A DNA stretch of 64,000 bases from an uncultured Methanoregulaceae archaeon (GCA_963701095.1 OY969564.1:800001-864000); one strand, 5' to 3'; positions 45,001 through 51,000 are shown, counted from the first letter of the stretch. Program-made: the numbers.

Positions 45001-48000
45001 ACACATTCATCCGGATATGTTGTCCGGAAATTACAGACATAAGGATGGTGTAAATAAATTTCCTTGATGCTGTCTTTCCTGATATTGCCAAGAATTACAG
45101 GGGAATGGTTGCATATCCGGATATTTCCGTAAGGATCGATAGTGAAATAAGAATTTTCGCCTGCTTTGGGGCAAAATCCTATCAGAATATGTTTGTATTC
45201 TCTTGGGGGAACAACACACGGCTCCAGAACTACTGCAGCGACACTCCGCATGCCATATGTCTCACCGATTTTCTCTAATGTCTCCAAATTTTCCTGAATC
45301 ATAGTTGGCGATGGAAGAAGTTCACGCCAAAAGTGAATATTGTGCGTACCCAGATTGATACGGTTATACATTAATGAATTAGCACCGAGAATAAGTGCAA
45401 GCTCTGCGGTTTTTTGGATATCCTGATAATTCAGTTTTGTTGCTACAAATACAACCGCAAAATTTCCCCCGGCTTTGGAAATATGAATCATGGCATTTAC
45501 GGCAGCGTCCCAAGCACCGGGTCGCCCGGCTAAATGATCATGAACCTCCTTTTTATGACTTAACAATGTGATTTGGTAGGTATTTACAGAATGAACCGTG
45601 GCTGCGATCAGTTCTTTGGTGAGGAGGGTCCCGTTCGTTATAATGACTACAGCGATCCCCCGTTCCTTTACAAACGAAATTAAATCCGGTAAATCGGAAC
45701 GGAGGAGTGGCTCTCCTCCAGAGAAACCAATGATCTCTATCGGGAATTCTTTCTGGAGTTTAATGATGACTTCTTTTATCTCATCTGTTGTCATCTCTTC
45801 CAGAGAGGGTGATGGATTATATTGTTCGTTATCACCCCATACGGTATAGCAATACAAACATCGATTGTTACAACGTTGCGTTACTTCGATGACAACATAC
45901 TTTGGTAAGGTTTCAGGCGTATTTCCATTCACGCTGATTCCTATTGAGAAAGCTCTTTCGCAGTTTCTTTCGAGATTATTCCCTCATCGACAAACTGTTT
46001 CACCAGGGATTCCTTAACTGCCGTGTCAATCGTCGGTGAGATTACATCTATGACTGGATAGTAGCACAAGATAGGCCGATGCCCCCAAATGAACCCGACA
46101 ACAAATTGCTGAGGTTCGGATAGCAGCACTTCAACCTCTGTTCCTACAAGTGAGGCAATGGTCTTTTTATCGATCTGCGGCCCAAGTGGAAGCAGCTGTT
46201 TTTTCTGCTTTCCTTTCAGGCTTGGAATCTCGAGATAATGTTCTCCACCCTCAACAACAACTTTCCCCTTTACTTTGTTGGACGACATGTTCATTCACCC
46301 GATTCAGATCATTTCAGTTATAGTATTTAATTATTTATATTCTACACAATTGAAATTTTACAATGCTATTAAAATTTTTAATGTGATTGCTACGAATAAT
46401 GTGAAACTAAACTTGTACCCGGTGCCGATCACTTTCACTCTCCGTATGGCCGGATCCTTATCCACATCAGTGCAGCAGGGATCCGGTGCTATGCACATCG
46501 AGATCCTCGAGCACCCGTACCATGACACTCAGGAGAAGGATCGTGTGGATCCTTGACTCCGCGTACCGGGACCGTGGTATCGATCTCTGGATTAAGGACG
46601 GACCAGTAACAAAAACCCATTACGATTACCGGCCGCCTTTTTACGTCCACTTCCACGACCCTCACGTTCATCAGGAGATGATCGAAGCACTGGAAGAGCG
46701 GCATGATGCGGAAGAGTGCGCCATCAAAACCGTCTTTGGCGAACTCCCCGGGTATGCAGTTACCGCAGGCCGGGATGTGGCCGAAGCGATAGAACGTCAG
46801 GCACAATTCGATGTCGATATCTTCAACGTTGATGTACGCAGGGACCAGCGGTTCATGGCCGAACGTGGGATCTGTCCGTGTATGGGAAAAGGGGATGACC
46901 GGTTTTCCCCGGAAATCGTACACAATCTTACCGTAATGGAGATTGAGATCCAGGGCAACCCGGCACTCTCCTCGCAGTTCACGGAAATTGAAATAAAAGG
47001 AATCCACACGGAACGGCTCACCGGTGAGAACCATGAAGTCCTCGCTGAACTCTTCGGCCTCGTCAATTCGCTTGACCCTGATGTCATCCTCATGCCGGAT
47101 GCCGATACCTGGATGCCGAAGATCCGGAAACTGGCACAACAATATGATCTGGTCATGCCTTTCTCGCGGAACGGCAAGTACCGGCAGATGGACGCCCGAT
47201 CGTACTGGAGTTACGGCAGGATGGAACACAAGGAATCTGCGCTTATTCCCGATGGGCGTATCCTGATCGATACCGAACAGTCGTTCGTGTACCGGGAGGG
47301 TGGTCTGGATGCAGTCCTCATGGCCGCCCGGCTTACAGGACTCTCGCCGAACTTAGCGTCCCGGTTCACGCCCGGAACCCTCATCAGCAGTGACGAGGTC
47401 TACGAAGCAGTAAAACGTGGGATTGCAGTGCCGTTCCGCAAAAGGGATCCGGAGCAGAGCCGTAAGCTCTCAGTTCTCCAGACCGCTGACCGGGGAGGTA
47501 TGATGTTCCAGCCAGAGCCAGGGACATTTGAGAATGTCGAGGAGATCGATTATACATCCATGTATCCCTCCATCATTGTAAAATCAAACCTCTCGCCGGA
47601 GACGGTCGGGCATCAGGAACGTGCGGGATTCCTTCCTGCGGTGCTCAAGCCGCTGCTCGAACTCCGTGTCAAAACCAAGCAGCTCAAGAAGACCGATCCA
47701 CGATTTGCCGGTACTGATGCAATTCTCAAGTGGATGCTCGTCACCTGTTTCGGGTACACGGGTTACAAGAATGCGAAGTTCGGGAGAATAGAGGTGCATG
47801 AGGGGATCACCGGCCGTTCCCGGGAAATCCTGATACAAACCAAAGAGATCGCCGAAAAGATGAATTTCCGGGTACTGCATGGGATCGTAGATTGTCTCTG
47901 GGTGCAGGGATCTCCGATCAAAGCACTCAGGGAACGGGTCGAGCGTGAAACTGATCTGCTCCTTGAAATTGACCACTTCGACTGGATCGTTTTTCTGCCT

Positions 48001-51000
48001 CTCGCGGATGGTTTTGGTGCCTATAACCGGTATTATGGCAGGCAACCGGATGGTAGTATCAAGGTCCGGGGAATTGCCGCTCGGAAACATGACACGCCAG
48101 AGTACATCCGGGAGATGCAACGCCGGATGCTGGATGTCATGGCCCGGGCAAAAACGATCGCTGAACTCAAAGTGACACAGGATGAAGTCACAGCAATTTA
48201 CCGGGAAACGATAAACAGACTGCCATCAGCGGACCCAAAGGAAATGATGATCAACCGCCGGATTAGCCGGCTCACGTATGCGCACCGGTGCATTGAAGGC
48301 GCAGCAGTGCAGGCATACCGGGATAACAAGATAGAGATCGCACCCGGTATGAAGATCCAGTACGTGGTGACCGATGCCCGGCGGTACAAGGTGGAACCTT
48401 CATGGTGCGCATCATCGTTTGATGTCGGATATTACCGGGAATTGATCGATAAGGCATATGGCGAGATCACGTTCGCATTTTCTCAGGCAGGATAATATAA
48501 TCTGAGGTTGGGTGGTTTCGAACCCATTACCTCAAAACCCTGATATTTATTGCACACAAATGTGACTGCATGACAATCCAAAGTGAGCAAACTACCCTCC
48601 CATTTGAGCAAAATGTCCACCCCTTAAATGTTACAATGAGTGATCTGAAGCAGTTTGAAGAACTCACAGGTCTCCCCGGAATAGCAAAACAAATGATTCG
48701 AGAAAAAATCGTAAAGGTTAAAGATTGATACAAAAAGAGTGAATATCCTTTTTAATTCAAGCCTATGGCGAGATTTGAACTCGCGACTTCTTCCTTACCA
48801 AGGAAGCACACTGCCGGGCTGTGTCACATAGGCAATTGCTTTTTCATTTTTGGTTTTTCTTCTATTTATGCTAAGGAGGAACTCATTTCCACGACGTCTT
48901 TACCAAGGAAGCACACTGCCGGGCTGTGTCACATAGGCAATTGCTTTTTCATTTTTGGTTTTTCTTCTATTTATGCTAAGGAGGAACTCATTTCCACGAC
49001 GTCTTTACCAAGGAGGTACTCTGCCGGGCTGAGTCACTTAGGCGTGTTTCTTCTACATCCTGCTCCTGTGAGGAATCAATTGGTTTTTACCGGAACATAA
49101 TACCGGCTTTAATCGCACAGGCAGGTTGCCTAGATACATTGTCGGTGAATATTATAAAATATTGCGGAGACTCTCTGGATTTCCCGGAGTTTACGCTCTA
49201 TTCAGAGCATCCGTTCCAGCATATGCATACTTGCGACCGCACCTGCGAAGTCTTCAACCTCAATTACCGGGGATCCGCCACTTTTTTTAACGGCACTCAT
49301 GACGGGTGAAAAATCGATAGTGCCCCTGCCAACAGCCCAGTGTGAATCGGCAGAGCTATCATTGTCATGCAGATGGTAGTGCCGGGCAGGGATGGAAAGA
49401 AATGATGCCAGGCAGTGATTCTGGTGCGCATGCCCTACATCGAGGGTAAAACCATAACCTTCGATCAAGTGGAGCTCATCTGGTGTTTTCAGGAAGAAAT
49501 ATTCCCAGTCCCCCATGTTCTCGACCGAAAACGATACACCGTATTCTTGTGCTGCGGCAGAAAGGTGCCTAAGCGATACCGCAAGCTGTTGTGCTGCCTG
49601 CGCTCGTTCCTCAGGCCACGCAAAGTACCCGGGGTGTACGACAACTTCCGCCCCTACTTCCGCTGCGATGGCAAAACATTCCTCCATCACCACAACACTT
49701 CCCCGCCGGATAGGTTCGAGCAGGCTTGCAAGATTCGTCCCCCGGCAGGGAGCATGGATGGAGAAGGTACAGGAGTAGGATAACAGCGGTTCAGCACTGC
49801 TAAGGAAATGGAGACCTTCATCCATCACTTCGATTGATCCTGTTACGTTGGAGATCCTTTCCAATGCTACCGGAAGGGGTTCGTGGTGGAGGCAGAGCGT
49901 GGAGATGCCAATCATTCAAGGAGCATGTACGGTCAGATCCCCATAAACATGCTGATCCAATTTGGGGAGTGACGAGCGTTGCGAATCCACGTGAAGTCAT
50001 TCCGTTTTTTAGTACCGGGCCATCTCCTGAGGAAAAAAGAGATTATTGTTTCATATGTACATCAACTGCGGGAACGGGATTTCGATTCCTTCACGTGAGA
50101 ACCGGTGTGCAACCCTGACGTTGATGGCATCCTTGACCTCGTCCGGGAGGTTATAGGCTTTTGCCCAGACATAGATCACAAATTTCAGGCTTGAATCCCC
50201 GAACTCCTGGAAAAAAATCCTCGGTCCCGGTTCATCAGCAAAATAATCGGTATTTTTAATCGCATCTTCGACAATCTCGAAAAGCACTTCCTTGACGCGG
50301 GAGACATCGTTCCCGTAAGCGACAGTTACCGGGATCGTATACCGGACTTGGGGATTGGGTTCTGAGTAATTGACAACACTACTTGACGTAATCTTGTTGT
50401 TAGGGATCGTGACAATCTTACCGTCAACGGTCCGGACCGGGTGCTCCGCGTACCGATCGCAACCACGTCACCGCAGAAGGCATCTATCTCGATACGGTCA
50501 CCTGTTTTGAAAGGTTTATCGACCGTGATAATCGCGCCGCCAAAAAAGTTGGAGATCAGATCCTGTGCAGCAAGGGCAAAGGCCAGACCAGCGATACCGG
50601 CACCGGCAAGGAAAGGGGTAATATTGATCTCGAGGTTGACAAAGACCAGCATGATCCCGGCAAACCAGACCACGTACCGCACGGCAAGTTCAAGGAGATC
50701 AACAATCCGGTCATCCGCGTCCCCCTCAGTCATTGCGGCAAGCTGGCGGCCGTAGATCCGGATGATATCATGAAGAAAAGAGGAGGCGATCCAGGTCCCC
50801 AGCAGAATAAGGATCGAATTGAGCACCTTATCGGAGATAATCCAGGCATATTGCTCCGGAACGATGTTAAAATCCTTAAGGGCGATATAGACCGAGATAG
50901 CAACGATCCCGATCTGAACCGGCGTGCCAATAGCGGCAACGATGATATCATCCCATTTTGTGTTGGTCGTTTCGGCATATTTCCGGAGCCACCGCACGAT

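Follow-up and report, generated by a model that had tools for sequence, protein, structure and literature searches.

The B-family DNA polymerase PolB2 is known from the operon iRadA-PPB2(arCOG07300)-PolB2, the PolB2 mutasome (Makarova 2014, PMC4104785; Timinskas 2025, PMC11791011), in which PPB2 is helical, ~80-90 aa long and marked by a conserved MGRT arm at its N-terminus (PMC11791011). PolB2 is defined by an HxxxD motif at the PolC position, and the motif is present in Sulfolobus Dpo2, a translesion extender that is enzymatically active (PMC8764526). In the Sulfolobales, the element 5'-A(N)TTTC-3' upstream of BRE/TATA is bound by Orc1-2, on which the induction of dpo2 depends (PMC6061795, PMC5817253). 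Translesion polymerases on mobile elements are exemplified by rumAB and mucAB, SOS-controlled error-prone polymerases of bacterial elements (cited in PMC11791011), while archaeal proviruses tied to host damage signalling include SSV1, through F55-RadA, and SNJ2, through the Orc1-like Orf8 (PMC10123103). Viral carriage of PolB2 goes unmentioned in the 2025 mutasome paper ("virus" 0 times; PMC11791011).

Here we describe a PolB2 gene of a provirus of an uncultured methanogenic archaeon, in a window of 64,000 nucleotides that begins at contig position 800,001. We consider it likely that this gene is cargo of a temperate tailed virus, derived from a host-type PolB2 mutasome operon, and that it has retained a damage-linked box promoter.

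A solo PolB2-family gene in a tailed provirus

Provirus 1 unites the hallmarks of a tailed temperate virus, namely an integrase, an att duplication, a terminase, a portal and tail genes (Table 1). Its integrase (786708-787850) and GmrSD, HEPN and ParB-like genes, all recognized with Pfam, lie to the left of the window; a major capsid protein was recognized by Pfam in insertions 2 and 3, but not in provirus 1. The 3' 42-49 nt of the tRNA-Thr gene recur at 786606 beside the integrase, 42 nt of them (786606-786647) at 95% identity. Two further insertions carry PolB2. Insertion 3 ends in a repeat of 13 exact bases, or 18 with one mismatch, and its flanks are 797-1177 bp apart in four of five relatives. 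The 12-bp repeat (96970/158847) given for insertion 2 in an earlier note on this DNA is by itself at chance level (~0.3 expected by our own arithmetic), unlike the tRNA-Thr and 18-bp repeats of that note, which stand; the 62-kb insertion is nevertheless real, since its flanking genes are near-adjacent, 379-906 bp apart, in all four relatives that have both. The polymerase genes are thus located inside the three elements, as the earlier note had it. Its description of three related proviruses is correct insofar as all carry tailed-virus genes and PolB, but they are mosaics whose relationship is only partial; the provirus-1 terminase has no other match in its own genome at E<=1e-20 and matches 2 of 110 other family genomes.

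Table 1. Features of the provirus and of the PolB2 locus (window positions unless stated otherwise)
Feature	Position	Strand	Basis or remark
Provirus 1, tailed temperate virus in tRNA-Thr	part in window 1..48808; whole element genome 786606-848808, ~62 kb	.	Pfam genes and att repeat
TerL	7918-9276		Pfam
Mu-type portal	9290-10756		Pfam
Tail tube	32516-32926		Pfam
TAC	33259-33684		Pfam
Dit	37642-38523		Pfam
Gp37-like tail proteins	38542-40870		Pfam
SRAP (abasic-site shielding protein) cargo gene	44111-44782	-	Pfam PF02586, E 1.7e-71
CACTTTCAC box (ANTTTCRC), candidate damage-response operator	46430..46438	+	most conserved part of the element
Inverted repeat CCGGATCC-N21-GGATCCGG	46450..46486	+	6 exact copies in genome
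TTAT, TATA-box-like core	46458..46461	+	block of columns at least 90% conserved, 37-sequence alignment
21-codon uORF (MHIEILEHPYHDTQEKDRVDP, stop), iRadA codons 1-6 in frame with PPB2 C-terminal tail	46491..46556	+	frame of ORF 46275-46556
PolB2-family DNA polymerase, solo (neither iRadA nor PPB2 adjoining)	46543-48495	+	NCBIfam NF004416, family profile, motifs
tRNA-Thr(GGT), attR of provirus 1	48760-48833	-	ARAGORN

The PolB-like reading frame covers window positions 46486-48495 (669 aa counted from the first GTG), with the GTG at 46543 as the likely start because relatives begin MWILDS there. The product matches NF004416 with E 4.8e-290 (963.7 bits, cut-off 516) and Pfam DNA_pol_B with E 1.2e-14, while the family profile finds solved archaeal PolBs with E 3.1e-37 and aligns HGIVD to YGDTD of 5mdn. 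Across 24 aligned sequences D336 (PolA), H446 and D450 are invariant; the N-terminal part aligns weakly to solved PolBs (8.2 and 6.8 bits), and no Pfam match to an exonuclease domain was found in the viral protein. Motif inspection agrees with the earlier note on the presence of IDYTSMYPS and HGIVDC and the absence of DTD. This is the PolB2 signature, in which YxDTD of PolC is replaced by HxxxD (here HGIVD) and the second Asp is kept, and the label "degenerate" or "inactive" given to the polymerase is outdated because the Sulfolobus enzyme with the same motif actively extends past lesions. By profile and motifs the gene product is assigned as a PolB2-family, translesion-type DNA polymerase, which by analogy with Dpo2 would be active.

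The 2.63-Mb genome has four PolB2 loci by tblastn, the intact provirus-1 gene (846486), the host gene at 602005, which is 72.5% identical to it in amino acid sequence, and the two-part copies 2109988+2110820 (90/92%) and 154090+154919 (88/91%), in accordance with the identities noted before (88-92% among viral copies, ~73% for the host copy). An orthologue, formerly counted in 97 of 101 genomes, occurs in 106 of the 111 family genomes. The three proviral copies adjoin neither iRadA nor PPB2 and keep only the 21-codon remnant of these genes. SRAP likewise accompanies PolB2 in provirus 1 and insertion 3, as had been noted; the provirus-1 protein is 70% identical to the host SRAP (genome 721946-722686) and 87% to the first 126 residues of the insertion-3 copy, which is split in the assembly. 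Linkage of SRAP to PolB2 is also seen at host loci of relatives, and SRAP promoters are without the A-N-TTTC box, which is absent from the 200 nt upstream of the provirus-1 gene.

The host operon and the origin of the solo copies

In same-genus relatives PolB is preceded by a gene for 172-175 aa and another for 78-93 aa. The first, iRadA, was detected in 104 of 111 family genomes and adjoins PolB in nearly all cases. The ten best Foldseek matches of its structural model (pLDDT 77.6), to Rad51, DMC1 and RadA, are Rad51/DMC1 filaments (E 2.4e-5 to 7e-5, probability 1.0), and no Walker A motif (GxxxxGK[ST]) was found in the sequence by inspection; the modelled protein appears to have a Rad51/RadA ATPase-core fold devoid of ATP-binding residues. 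Size and MGRT start identify the small protein as PPB2, the candidates here having 84 and 87 aa and beginning MGRTF (the 786k copy, read from GTG, as (M)IGRTF), with G2, R3 and R9 unchanged throughout 17 sequences. The chromosomal operon of the genome under study itself is without iRadA, a paralogue of which is located 114 kb away (genome 715613-716131), and PPB2 is encoded at 601815 and 786332.

The ~80-nt element upstream of the viral polymerases is best read as the promoter and first codons of this operon, comprising the box, TTAT and the iRadA start codon, as a caveat of the earlier note (a duplicated promoter and 5' end) had anticipated. Each of the 32 listed loci has it immediately 5' of iRadA. 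In an alignment of 37 promoters (30 of the 32 operon loci plus seven copies of this genome), ACTTTC is present in 35 and conservation starts abruptly at the box, and ANTTTCRC recurs in 20 of 20 PolB2-operon loci from five other families. TTAT, 20 nt 3' of the box and ~30 nt 5' of the uORF ATG, may serve as TATA box. Nine copies are detected by blastn, at 846430, 2109932 (89%), 154026 (86%), 716193 (91%), 786228 (87%), 783974, 601709 (83%), 782031 and, degenerate, 770355; the exact inverted repeat occurs six times, compared with eight copies in an earlier pattern scan. The copy at 716193 bears out the element noted before host gene g00752, which is simply the iRadA paralogue. The element extends well beyond the 3 of 61 genomes counted earlier for its 21-mer core, as diverged homologues precede the operon at every locus examined. 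The earlier observation that the viral copies retain it, better conserved than the coding sequence, holds: the elements are 83-91% identical, far more than synonymous sites, since dS between viral and host PolB2 copies is 1.3-2.0.

The uORF, the stop of which overlaps the PolB2 start, is readily aligned with the operon, as iRadA begins MQIEIRKG and PPB2 tails end in VDP or VDS, and its junction GGAGAAGGATCGTGTGGATC matches GGAGTAGGATCGTGTGGATC, the PPB2/PolB2 junction of two relatives. By this comparison the uORF is the remnant of a deletion that took out iRadA and PPB2. After such an in-frame deletion, codon 6 of iRadA would be followed directly by the final ~15 PPB2 codons, with endpoints probably within the short sequence CGAGATCC common to both genes. 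The deletion would spare the promoter with box, TTAT and start codon, the uORF and the stop/start overlap coupling translation into PolB2. Independent solo PolB2 copies, built alike but with other junctions, occur in two other genera.

In a tree of 37 PolB2 sequences the three viral copies form one clade (SH-aLRT 100) nested inside the host genus, which supports the capture of a host gene with its control region, as proposed in the earlier note. The reverse, an old viral solo polymerase with promoter from which cellular operons derive, would accommodate the promoter-bearing solo copies of the two other genera, one of which, between hsdR and mrr, shows that the gene is mobile. We hold it to be extremely improbable, as the operon is present in 104-106 of 111 family genomes, mostly as a single copy, the tree follows the genera, the viral uORF is built of iRadA and PPB2 remnants, the host locus here is syntenic on both sides with that of a relative, and a related provirus in another genome (G054, TerL 62%) has no extra PolB2. 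Captured copies are under purifying selection, with dN/dS of 0.08-0.16 for all PolB2 pairs and both gene halves, which also bears on the frameshifts in two of them. A true split by a shared 1-nt insertion, giving two polypeptides, programmed frameshifting or young pseudogenes, is a minor possibility that deserves some weight: the same extra G is found in both assembly copies, and split PolB2 genes exist, since dpo2 of S. islandicus is reported to consist of a pair of genes, SiRe_0614 and SiRe_0615 (PMC6061795). Yet the two split copies, at dS 0.37-0.45, give a dN/dS of 0.094 in the N half and 0.082 in the C half, and all three short-read contigs over the site (two from run X1, one from X3) are short by one base, one of them being the in-frame form of an insertion-2-like sequence. 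The same assembly also breaks the neighbouring SRAP, at an A5 run of which an otherwise identical 824-nt contig has one base fewer, and the one-contig genome is only 86% complete by score. The frameshifts are thus probably assembly errors, which the earlier note had named beside decay, though none of the short-read contigs is identical to the insertion-3 copy over the site. Contigs over SRAP and parts of PolB2 occur in one metatranscriptome, possibly from DNA carry-over or relatives.

The box and the genes it precedes

In this genome the box and a TATA-like motif also precede mre11-rad50-nurA, a gene for an OB-fold SSB, a YdjM-like gene (Pfam) and radA (Rad51, E 1e-79); YdjM is an SOS gene in E. 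coli. The box is located at -85 to -35 in only 16 of 1859 ORFs of at least 200 aa. The 9-mer by itself is unenriched genome-wide (54 copies versus 13-67 for permuted words). Across six families it precedes radA within 150 nt in 19 of 20 cases, the RPA-like SSB gene in 18 of 20 and mre11 in 10 of 20 by strict match, with one-mismatch variants at the equal place in seven more, whereby orthologous promoters count as non-independent samples. The box is conserved before four operons and in six families of the order; this conservation of ANTTTCRC upstream of the PolB2 operon, radA, the RPA-like SSB gene and mre11-rad50-nurA, as read from the promoter sequences, is new. It points to an SOS-like DNA-repair regulon that the provirus has joined, in which induction by damage itself would be expected. 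The earlier proposal that provirus genes fire with host stress can apply at most to the PolB2 cargo, because only two other proviral box matches were found in scans of the genome, namely before a 172-aa and a doubtful 85-aa ORF of insertion 2.

The element could alternatively act as RNA, the CCGGATCC/GGATCCGG arms forming a hairpin in the 5' leader that masks the ribosome-binding site in a riboswitch- or attenuator-like manner. Its right arm overlaps GGTG just 5' of the ATG and the minimum-energy fold contains a 9-bp stem; the fold is, however, not significant (z = -1.63, 13 of 200 shuffles folding equally well), and an Rfam search found no family at E<=1. Relatives have CCTGAG, CCGGTC, CTCTCC and others as left arm opposite a conserved right arm, with no compensating change, and should TTAT be the TATA box, the left arm would lie outside the transcript. 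With its 8-bp inverted repeat lineage-specific and without covariation, a hairpin switch was rejected as very improbable. A constitutive or cell-cycle role of the box deserves more attention, as radA, RPA and mre11 serve in replication and the cell cycle as well and the box could mark S-phase expression in place of damage induction, in which case the provirus copy would be expressed as a housekeeping replication gene. All host box genes, the PolB2 operon included, act in normal replication and recombination too, and the box-to-TATA spacing is unlike that of the Sulfolobales damage element. We nevertheless judge this unlikely, given that the YdjM-like gene also bears the box and that in other lineages the PolB2 operon and SRAP have ties with lexA or orc1/cdc6 as well as with damage induction (PMC4104785; PMC11791011; PMC6061795).

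A damage-linked promoter thus remains the preferred reading. The source operon is a predicted damage-inducible translesion complex, of which the polymerase has ended up as cargo of a temperate tailed archaeal virus, near its attR. Upon DNA damage, box promoters would be activated by a host regulator, for which an Orc1/Cdc6 paralogue is the most plausible candidate on the Sulfolobales precedent; the genome has two Orc1/Cdc6 genes, neither of which adjoins a box locus. The proviral polymerase would then be co-produced with host recombination and repair proteins and, because its own partners are missing, would need to borrow host iRadA and PPB2 in trans. It may aid replication through lesions jointly with the SRAP encoded nearby, in the lysogen or the induced virus.

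Comparison with described systems

Host loci resemble the PolB2 mutasome in their three protein families and the order of the genes, HxxxD, MGRT, the P-loop-less Rad51 fold and SRAP nearby, whereas the proviral copies are solo with a uORF remnant and the chromosomal operon of this genome also is without iRadA. With the Sulfolobales element the box shares the identical hexamer A-N-T-T-T-C, placed here in promoters of putative damage-response genes, a second position that varies freely (C, T, G or A here), its non-palindromic nature and its location upstream of TATA and before PolB2. On the other hand, the phylum differs, the box here is longer, ANTTTCRC(C)C..GCACGG, and the genes concerned are radA, rpa, mre11-rad50 and the PolB2 operon as opposed to ups, ced and tfb3. 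The Orc1-2 element is positioned at -44 to -39 from the transcription start site, directly before BRE/TATA; here, from start to start, the box lies ~24-26 nt upstream of the TATA-like motif as compared with ~12-14 nt in S. acidocaldarius, about one helical turn more. As the spacing differs, the likeness may be convergent or the box bound by another factor.

Like SSV1 and SNJ2, the provirus would be a temperate archaeal virus that senses or exploits the host damage response; those systems govern the lysogeny switch, whereas the cargo here is a repair enzyme with no link to switch genes found. The rumAB and mucAB elements keep the operator of the host damage regulon. There as here the translesion polymerase travels on a mobile element and depends, in our case presumably, on host partners. 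The polymerases are non-homologous, Y-family Pol V versus B-family PolB2, and the carrier here is a tailed provirus of an archaeal host.

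PolB2 copies and the enzyme family

The four polymerase loci reported for this one-contig genome (G000) in the earlier note are recovered by tblastn (see table), and its observation as a whole, from the polymerase copies to the insertions and the upstream element, is confirmed by tblastn, by attachment-site and flank evidence and by the element copies themselves. The window copy, the PolB2 of insertion 1 (provirus 1), probably starts at GTG 46543, as the proteins of relatives begin MWILDS, and is recognised by NCBIfam as a type B DNA polymerase (NF004416, E 4.8e-290, over the cut-off). 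Against solved archaeal PolBs, a profile built from 24 family members scores E 3e-37, with the PolA motif aligned to IDFTSLYPS and YGDTDS to HGIVDC.

PolB2 was described as degenerate or inactive in older work (PMC2527604; PMC4104785), and this was also the label applied to the present polymerase. A later source defines the PolB2 group by its PolC motif, HxxxD in place of YxDTD, and describes the Dpo2 enzymes of S. islandicus and of S. solfataricus, which have this motif, as robust polymerases that lack proofreading and extend from both mismatches and lesions (PMC8764526); the label therefore represents an outdated view. The invariant D316-R317 is present in viral PolB2 and, by position, would correspond to the D(K/R) loop that contacts PPB2, a small arCOG07300 protein, in published models. 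Every PolB2 pair, in both halves of the protein, has a dN/dS of 0.08-0.16.

Coordinates of features in the genome, the window and extracted loci (L-numbers)
Feature	Position	Strand	Remarks	Evidence
PolB2 open frame	window 46486-48495		669 codons	
PolB2 copy	genome 846486		intact, window copy	tblastn
PolB2 copy	genome 602005		72.5% identical to window copy	tblastn
PolB2 copy	genome 2109988+2110820		90/92% identical to window copy	tblastn
PolB2 copy	genome 154090+154919		88/91% identical to window copy	tblastn
Viral uORF MHIEILEHPYHDTQEKDRVDP and stop	window 46491-46556		iRadA codons 1-6 in frame with PPB2 C-terminal tail	
Apparent 1-nt indel errors	L010 5161; L010 6816-6819; L010 8911-9579		SRAP, A5 run; polymerase; XPG-like gene	
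Insertion 1	genome 786606-848808		integrase, TerL, Mu-type portal, tail tube, TAC, Dit, Gp37-like tail genes	
CN-hydrolase-domain protein (614 aa), reverse transcriptase (414 aa), PD-(D/E)XK/Cas4-like nuclease in a row	window 13826-17975	-		Pfam
Provirus 1 left arm: GmrSD_N, RiboL-PSP HEPN, GGDEF/Cas10-palm-like cyclase, 421-aa unknown protein	genome 792951-796686 (L002 7951-11686)			Pfam
tRNA-Thr 5' half, two additional copies	window 48900-48938 and 49005-49043		100% and 87% identity	
172-aa ORF, no family match; ATTTTCACGCCGCACGGTAC box and TTTTAT upstream	genome 137769-137824	-	insertion 2	

Both split PolB2 copies carry one extra G at the identical site, genome 2110816-2110819 and 154917-154919, for which assembly error and decay had been considered side by side. 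Assembly error is favoured and quite probable: compared with each other (dS 0.37-0.45) the two copies show dN/dS of 0.094 and 0.082, and each of the three short-read contigs that span the site (two from run X1, one from run X3) is without one base. Run X1 contains the same strain, because 92% of sampled words and the junctions of the other PolB2 copies are present in it. One of the three contigs is the insertion-1 copy and one an in-frame, insertion-2-like sequence, while none of the short-read contigs over the frameshift site is identical to the copy of insertion 3. In insertion 3 the gene for SRAP, the abasic-site shielding protein, is interrupted at an A5 run, and an 824-nt contig without that base is otherwise identical throughout; the XPG-like gene has 222 codons instead of 335. 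The completeness of the one-contig genome is 86%, and its other split genes are to be read with care. In a wetland metatranscriptome the contigs were all short and mostly 7-9% diverged, and are no proof of expression.

The upstream element and the origin of the viral copies

The ~80-nt control element noted upstream of the polymerases and of g00752 has nine copies in G000 by blastn, all of which end in GGTG-N3-ATG and continue as MQIKI or MQIEI. In relatives of the same genus it is directly followed by a gene for 172-175 aa beginning MQIELRKGLAL.PGTFNAV, then by a gene for 78-93 aa and PolB. The first of these, termed iRadA (inactivated RadA), occurs in 104 of 111 family genomes, in almost every case adjoining PolB; its AlphaFold model (pLDDT 77.6) matches Rad51/DMC1/RadA cores in Foldseek (E 2.4e-5, probability 1.0), and it has no P-loop. 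The 78-93-aa protein, PPB2, begins MGRT, with G2, R3 and R9 invariant. The host operon is the published 'PolB2 mutasome' iRadA-PPB2(arCOG07300)-PolB2, a gene system already known, around which SRAP and orc1/cdc6 are enriched (PMC4104785; PMC11791011). As iRadA lies directly downstream in the operons of relatives, the element is, judged by sequence, the operon promoter together with the first iRadA codons, in line with the caveat that it may be a duplicated promoter and 5' end. Gene g00752 (genome 715613-716131) is itself an iRadA paralogue, since the closest relative has an 86%-identical copy of it and a separate, 72%-identical copy in the operon.

In G000 and in one further genome, G113, the element is found ahead of an unrelated 158-aa gene. 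These are two of the 13 members of that gene family with upstream DNA (a 14th ends at a contig edge), and the element can therefore be regarded as a portable promoter. A TBP paralogue is located immediately 5' of a degenerate element copy and the 158-aa gene (genome 769429-769983 and 770361-770894; L001 4429-5894). Element copies with only the first 26-75 iRadA codons occur at genome 782033 and 783973 (L001) and in related genomes (G057:C10, G105:C23, G005:380429); the promoter plus iRadA 5' end seems prone to duplication. An RNA element was considered and rejected: the inverted repeat is restricted to the host lineage and without covariation, the hairpin is unconserved, an Rfam search gave no match at E<=1 and the fold is unremarkable (z = -1.63).

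The claim that a virus captured a host gene with its upstream control region is supported. In a tree of 37 PolB2 sequences (IQ-TREE quick search, LG+G4) the three viral copies form one clade (SH-aLRT 100) nested among host-genus copies, and this nesting, together with the operon remnants of iRadA and PPB2, supports host-to-virus capture. The 20 nt 5' of the viral PolB2 start, GGAGAAGGATCGTGTGGATC, correspond to GGAGTAGGATCGTGTGGATC, the sequence found where PPB2 meets PolB2 in two relatives, and PPB2 tails end in REHVDP or similar. The joint sequence CGAGATCC is present in both iRadA (within ATCGAGATCC) and PPB2 (within GTCGAGATCC); the simplest inference is that the viral arrangement arose by deletion between these short repeats. 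Translational coupling is kept, as the stop of the viral uORF overlaps the PolB2 start exactly like the PPB2 stop in complete operons. Two solo copies in other genera, with neither iRadA nor PPB2 beside them, form their own clade inside that of the host genus and share this design, though their joints differ (MQIELPKCMVLRTHVDL and stop; a direct MSMWIFD fusion); one of them is located between hsdR and mrr.

On both flanks the chromosomal locus of G000 (601-604 kb) shares synteny with that of the closest relative, and it has 180 nt versus about 690 nt of iRadA there, the remnant being the first and last iRadA codons (MQIKIR joined to NKTLGVS and stop). The element with the same iRadA-deletion uORF and an 87-aa PPB2 paralogue, with no polymerase, is also found at genome 786230-786592 (L002 1230-1592), 14 nt left of attL and directly outside provirus 1, either as an ancestral host module or as the remnant of an older element. 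An older tandem provirus left of attL as the source of this copy finds no support in the genes at 765-786 kb, which look cellular (TBP, TusA, glycosyltransferase, PAS kinases); no further tRNA 3'-half fragment was found left of attL.

Proviruses and their cargo

Insertion 1 lies between tRNA-Thr(GGT) and a 42-49-nt repeat of the 3' end of that tRNA; the extra tRNA-Thr 5' halves, close by on the right-hand side of the intact tRNA, suggest that integration or excision took place here before. Insertion 2 has an integrase, a Mu gpT-like capsid gene and tail genes. Its 12-bp repeat, previously taken as att sites, is at chance level, whereas its flanking host genes lie 379-906 bp apart in all four relatives having both. 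Insertion 3 comprises integrase, terminase, portal, SU10-type capsid and SRAP genes, and its flanks adjoin each other in four of five relatives. The description as three related proviruses holds for common patches at 74-93% nucleotide identity, the polymerase among them at 88.7-89.6%, but not throughout: the insertions are mosaic, and the insertion 1 terminase has no other match in G000. Two of 110 other family genomes have a match to it, and in the one whose terminase is 62% identical an extra PolB2 is absent.

Type I-C cas genes (Cas3 HD-helicase, Cas5d, Csd1, Cas7, Cas1) are situated inside the 62-kb insertion 2 (genome 139585-146978; L006 3585-10978), between tail module and polymerase. 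The row of three genes in provirus 1 resembles a virus-borne RT-nitrilase module of the defence type, and the left-arm genes may be further defence cargo. A distance of 5.8 kb separates the host SRAP gene (genome 721946-722686) from the iRadA paralogue, and a 29-codon fragment of SRAP (718903-718989) is located in this interval; SRAP is also found 2-5 kb from complete operons in two relatives.

A single-protein scan of public viral contigs gave no PolB2. An alignment scan gave two loci at 30% identity on low-GC contigs, each having all of iRadA-PPB2-PolB2-SRAP; host flanks may be part of these contigs, and they are not kin of provirus 1. On a low-GC predicted viral contig of IMG/VR (L081 8616-12393), iRadA-like, PPB2 (MGRTV..), PolB2 (HAITD) and SRAP genes are consecutive; either the entire mutasome is mobile there or a host flank is included.

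A promoter box of repair genes

In an alignment of 37 promoters from seven genera, conservation begins abruptly at CACTTTCRC (ACTTTC in 35), followed by a C-rich stretch, TTAT 20 nt on and then about 30 nt to ATG, and in five further families of the order Methanomicrobiales 20 of 20 iRadA loci have A[C/T/G]TTTC[A/G]C at the same place. A relaxed scan of G000 for this box (ANTTTCRC with a TATA-like motif 20-34 nt later) retrieved mre11-rad50-nurA, an OB-fold RPA-like SSB gene, a YdjM-like gene, radA (Rad51 E 1e-79) and several unknown genes, including the 172-aa ORF of insertion 2, the upstream region of which closely resembles the RPA and radA promoters. At -85..-35 the box precedes 16 of 1859 long ORFs in G000 (0.86%). 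Across six families the footprint is found at 18 of 20 RPA-like loci, at 19 of 20 radA loci within 150 nt (17 at -110..-30) and, strictly, at 10 of 20 mre11 loci, with one-mismatch variants in the same position at 7 more. One short box thus marks the promoters of a recombinase, an ssDNA-binding protein, an end-resection nuclease complex and a translesion polymerase operon in six methanogen families. A wider regulon by exact pattern was rejected: CACTTTCRC as a word is not enriched in G000, six of its 10 sites with TTAT 12-22 nt downstream are element copies, and the other operons surfaced only in the relaxed scan.

The proposal that provirus genes are wired to a host switch would apply at most to the PolB2 cargo, which has the box; elsewhere in the proviruses the G000 scans gave only two box sites, both in insertion 2, at the 172-aa ORF and a doubtful 85-aa ORF; the same box was not found in the SRAP promoter. 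The two Orc1/Cdc6 genes of G000, at genome 1728146 and 1244636, are not adjacent to box loci. The earlier interpretation is supported in part, for host capture with the control region, but not for a 'degenerate' enzyme or for proviruses related throughout.

Upon DNA damage, a host factor would activate the box-bearing promoters, and the lysogen would then make viral PolB2 alongside RadA, RPA, Mre11-Rad50 and its own PPB2-PolB2. Viral PolB2 would use the host iRadA and PPB2, while SRAP, from another promoter, would shield abasic sites, with a benefit to the lysogen or to the induced virus both possible. Tentatively, and with more doubt than conviction, ANTTTC(RC) may be proposed as the operator of an ancient archaeal SOS-like regulon common to Crenarchaeota (Sulfolobales, Orc1-2) and Euryarchaeota (the whole Methanomicrobiales), which would control methanogen radA, RPA, mre11-rad50-nurA and the PolB2 mutasome and be exploited by temperate methanogen viruses via a partner-less PolB2 (plus SRAP) behind an operator copy, a damaged lysogen loading the viral polymerase into the host iRadA/PPB2 scaffold.

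The box bears on whether Euryarchaeota have a coordinated SOS-like transcriptional damage response, as a concrete regulon with the Sulfolobales hexamer, testable by mutation. In literature searches, with supplementary files outside their scope, every relevant paper with the term ANTTTC concerned Sulfolobales, and searches on PolB2 with archaeal viruses, on Methanospirillum proviruses and on euryarchaeal radA promoter motifs returned no description of PolB2 carriage or of the box. As far as these searches reach, the order-wide repair-gene box and the carriage of PolB2 by tailed methanogen proviruses with a remnant-uORF design are new, and provirus 1 is the first tailed archaeal provirus case with a PolB2 translesion polymerase plus SRAP as cargo, which bears on the mutation rates of virus and host in methanogenic communities.

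To our knowledge, an archaeal DNA-damage cis-element together with its regulator is known only for Sulfolobales. There, 5'-A(N)TTTC-3' occupies positions -44..-39 relative to the TSS, immediately 5' of BRE/TATA; UV/NQO induction requires it, Orc1-2 binds it, and the induction of dpo2 is Orc1-2-dependent (PMC5817253; PMC6061795). The methanogen box has the same hexamer with the same free second position, but lies roughly one helical turn further from the TATA-like motif. With respect to SOS-controlled mutagenic polymerases on bacterial mobile elements, the provirus PolB2 would be an archaeal counterpart.
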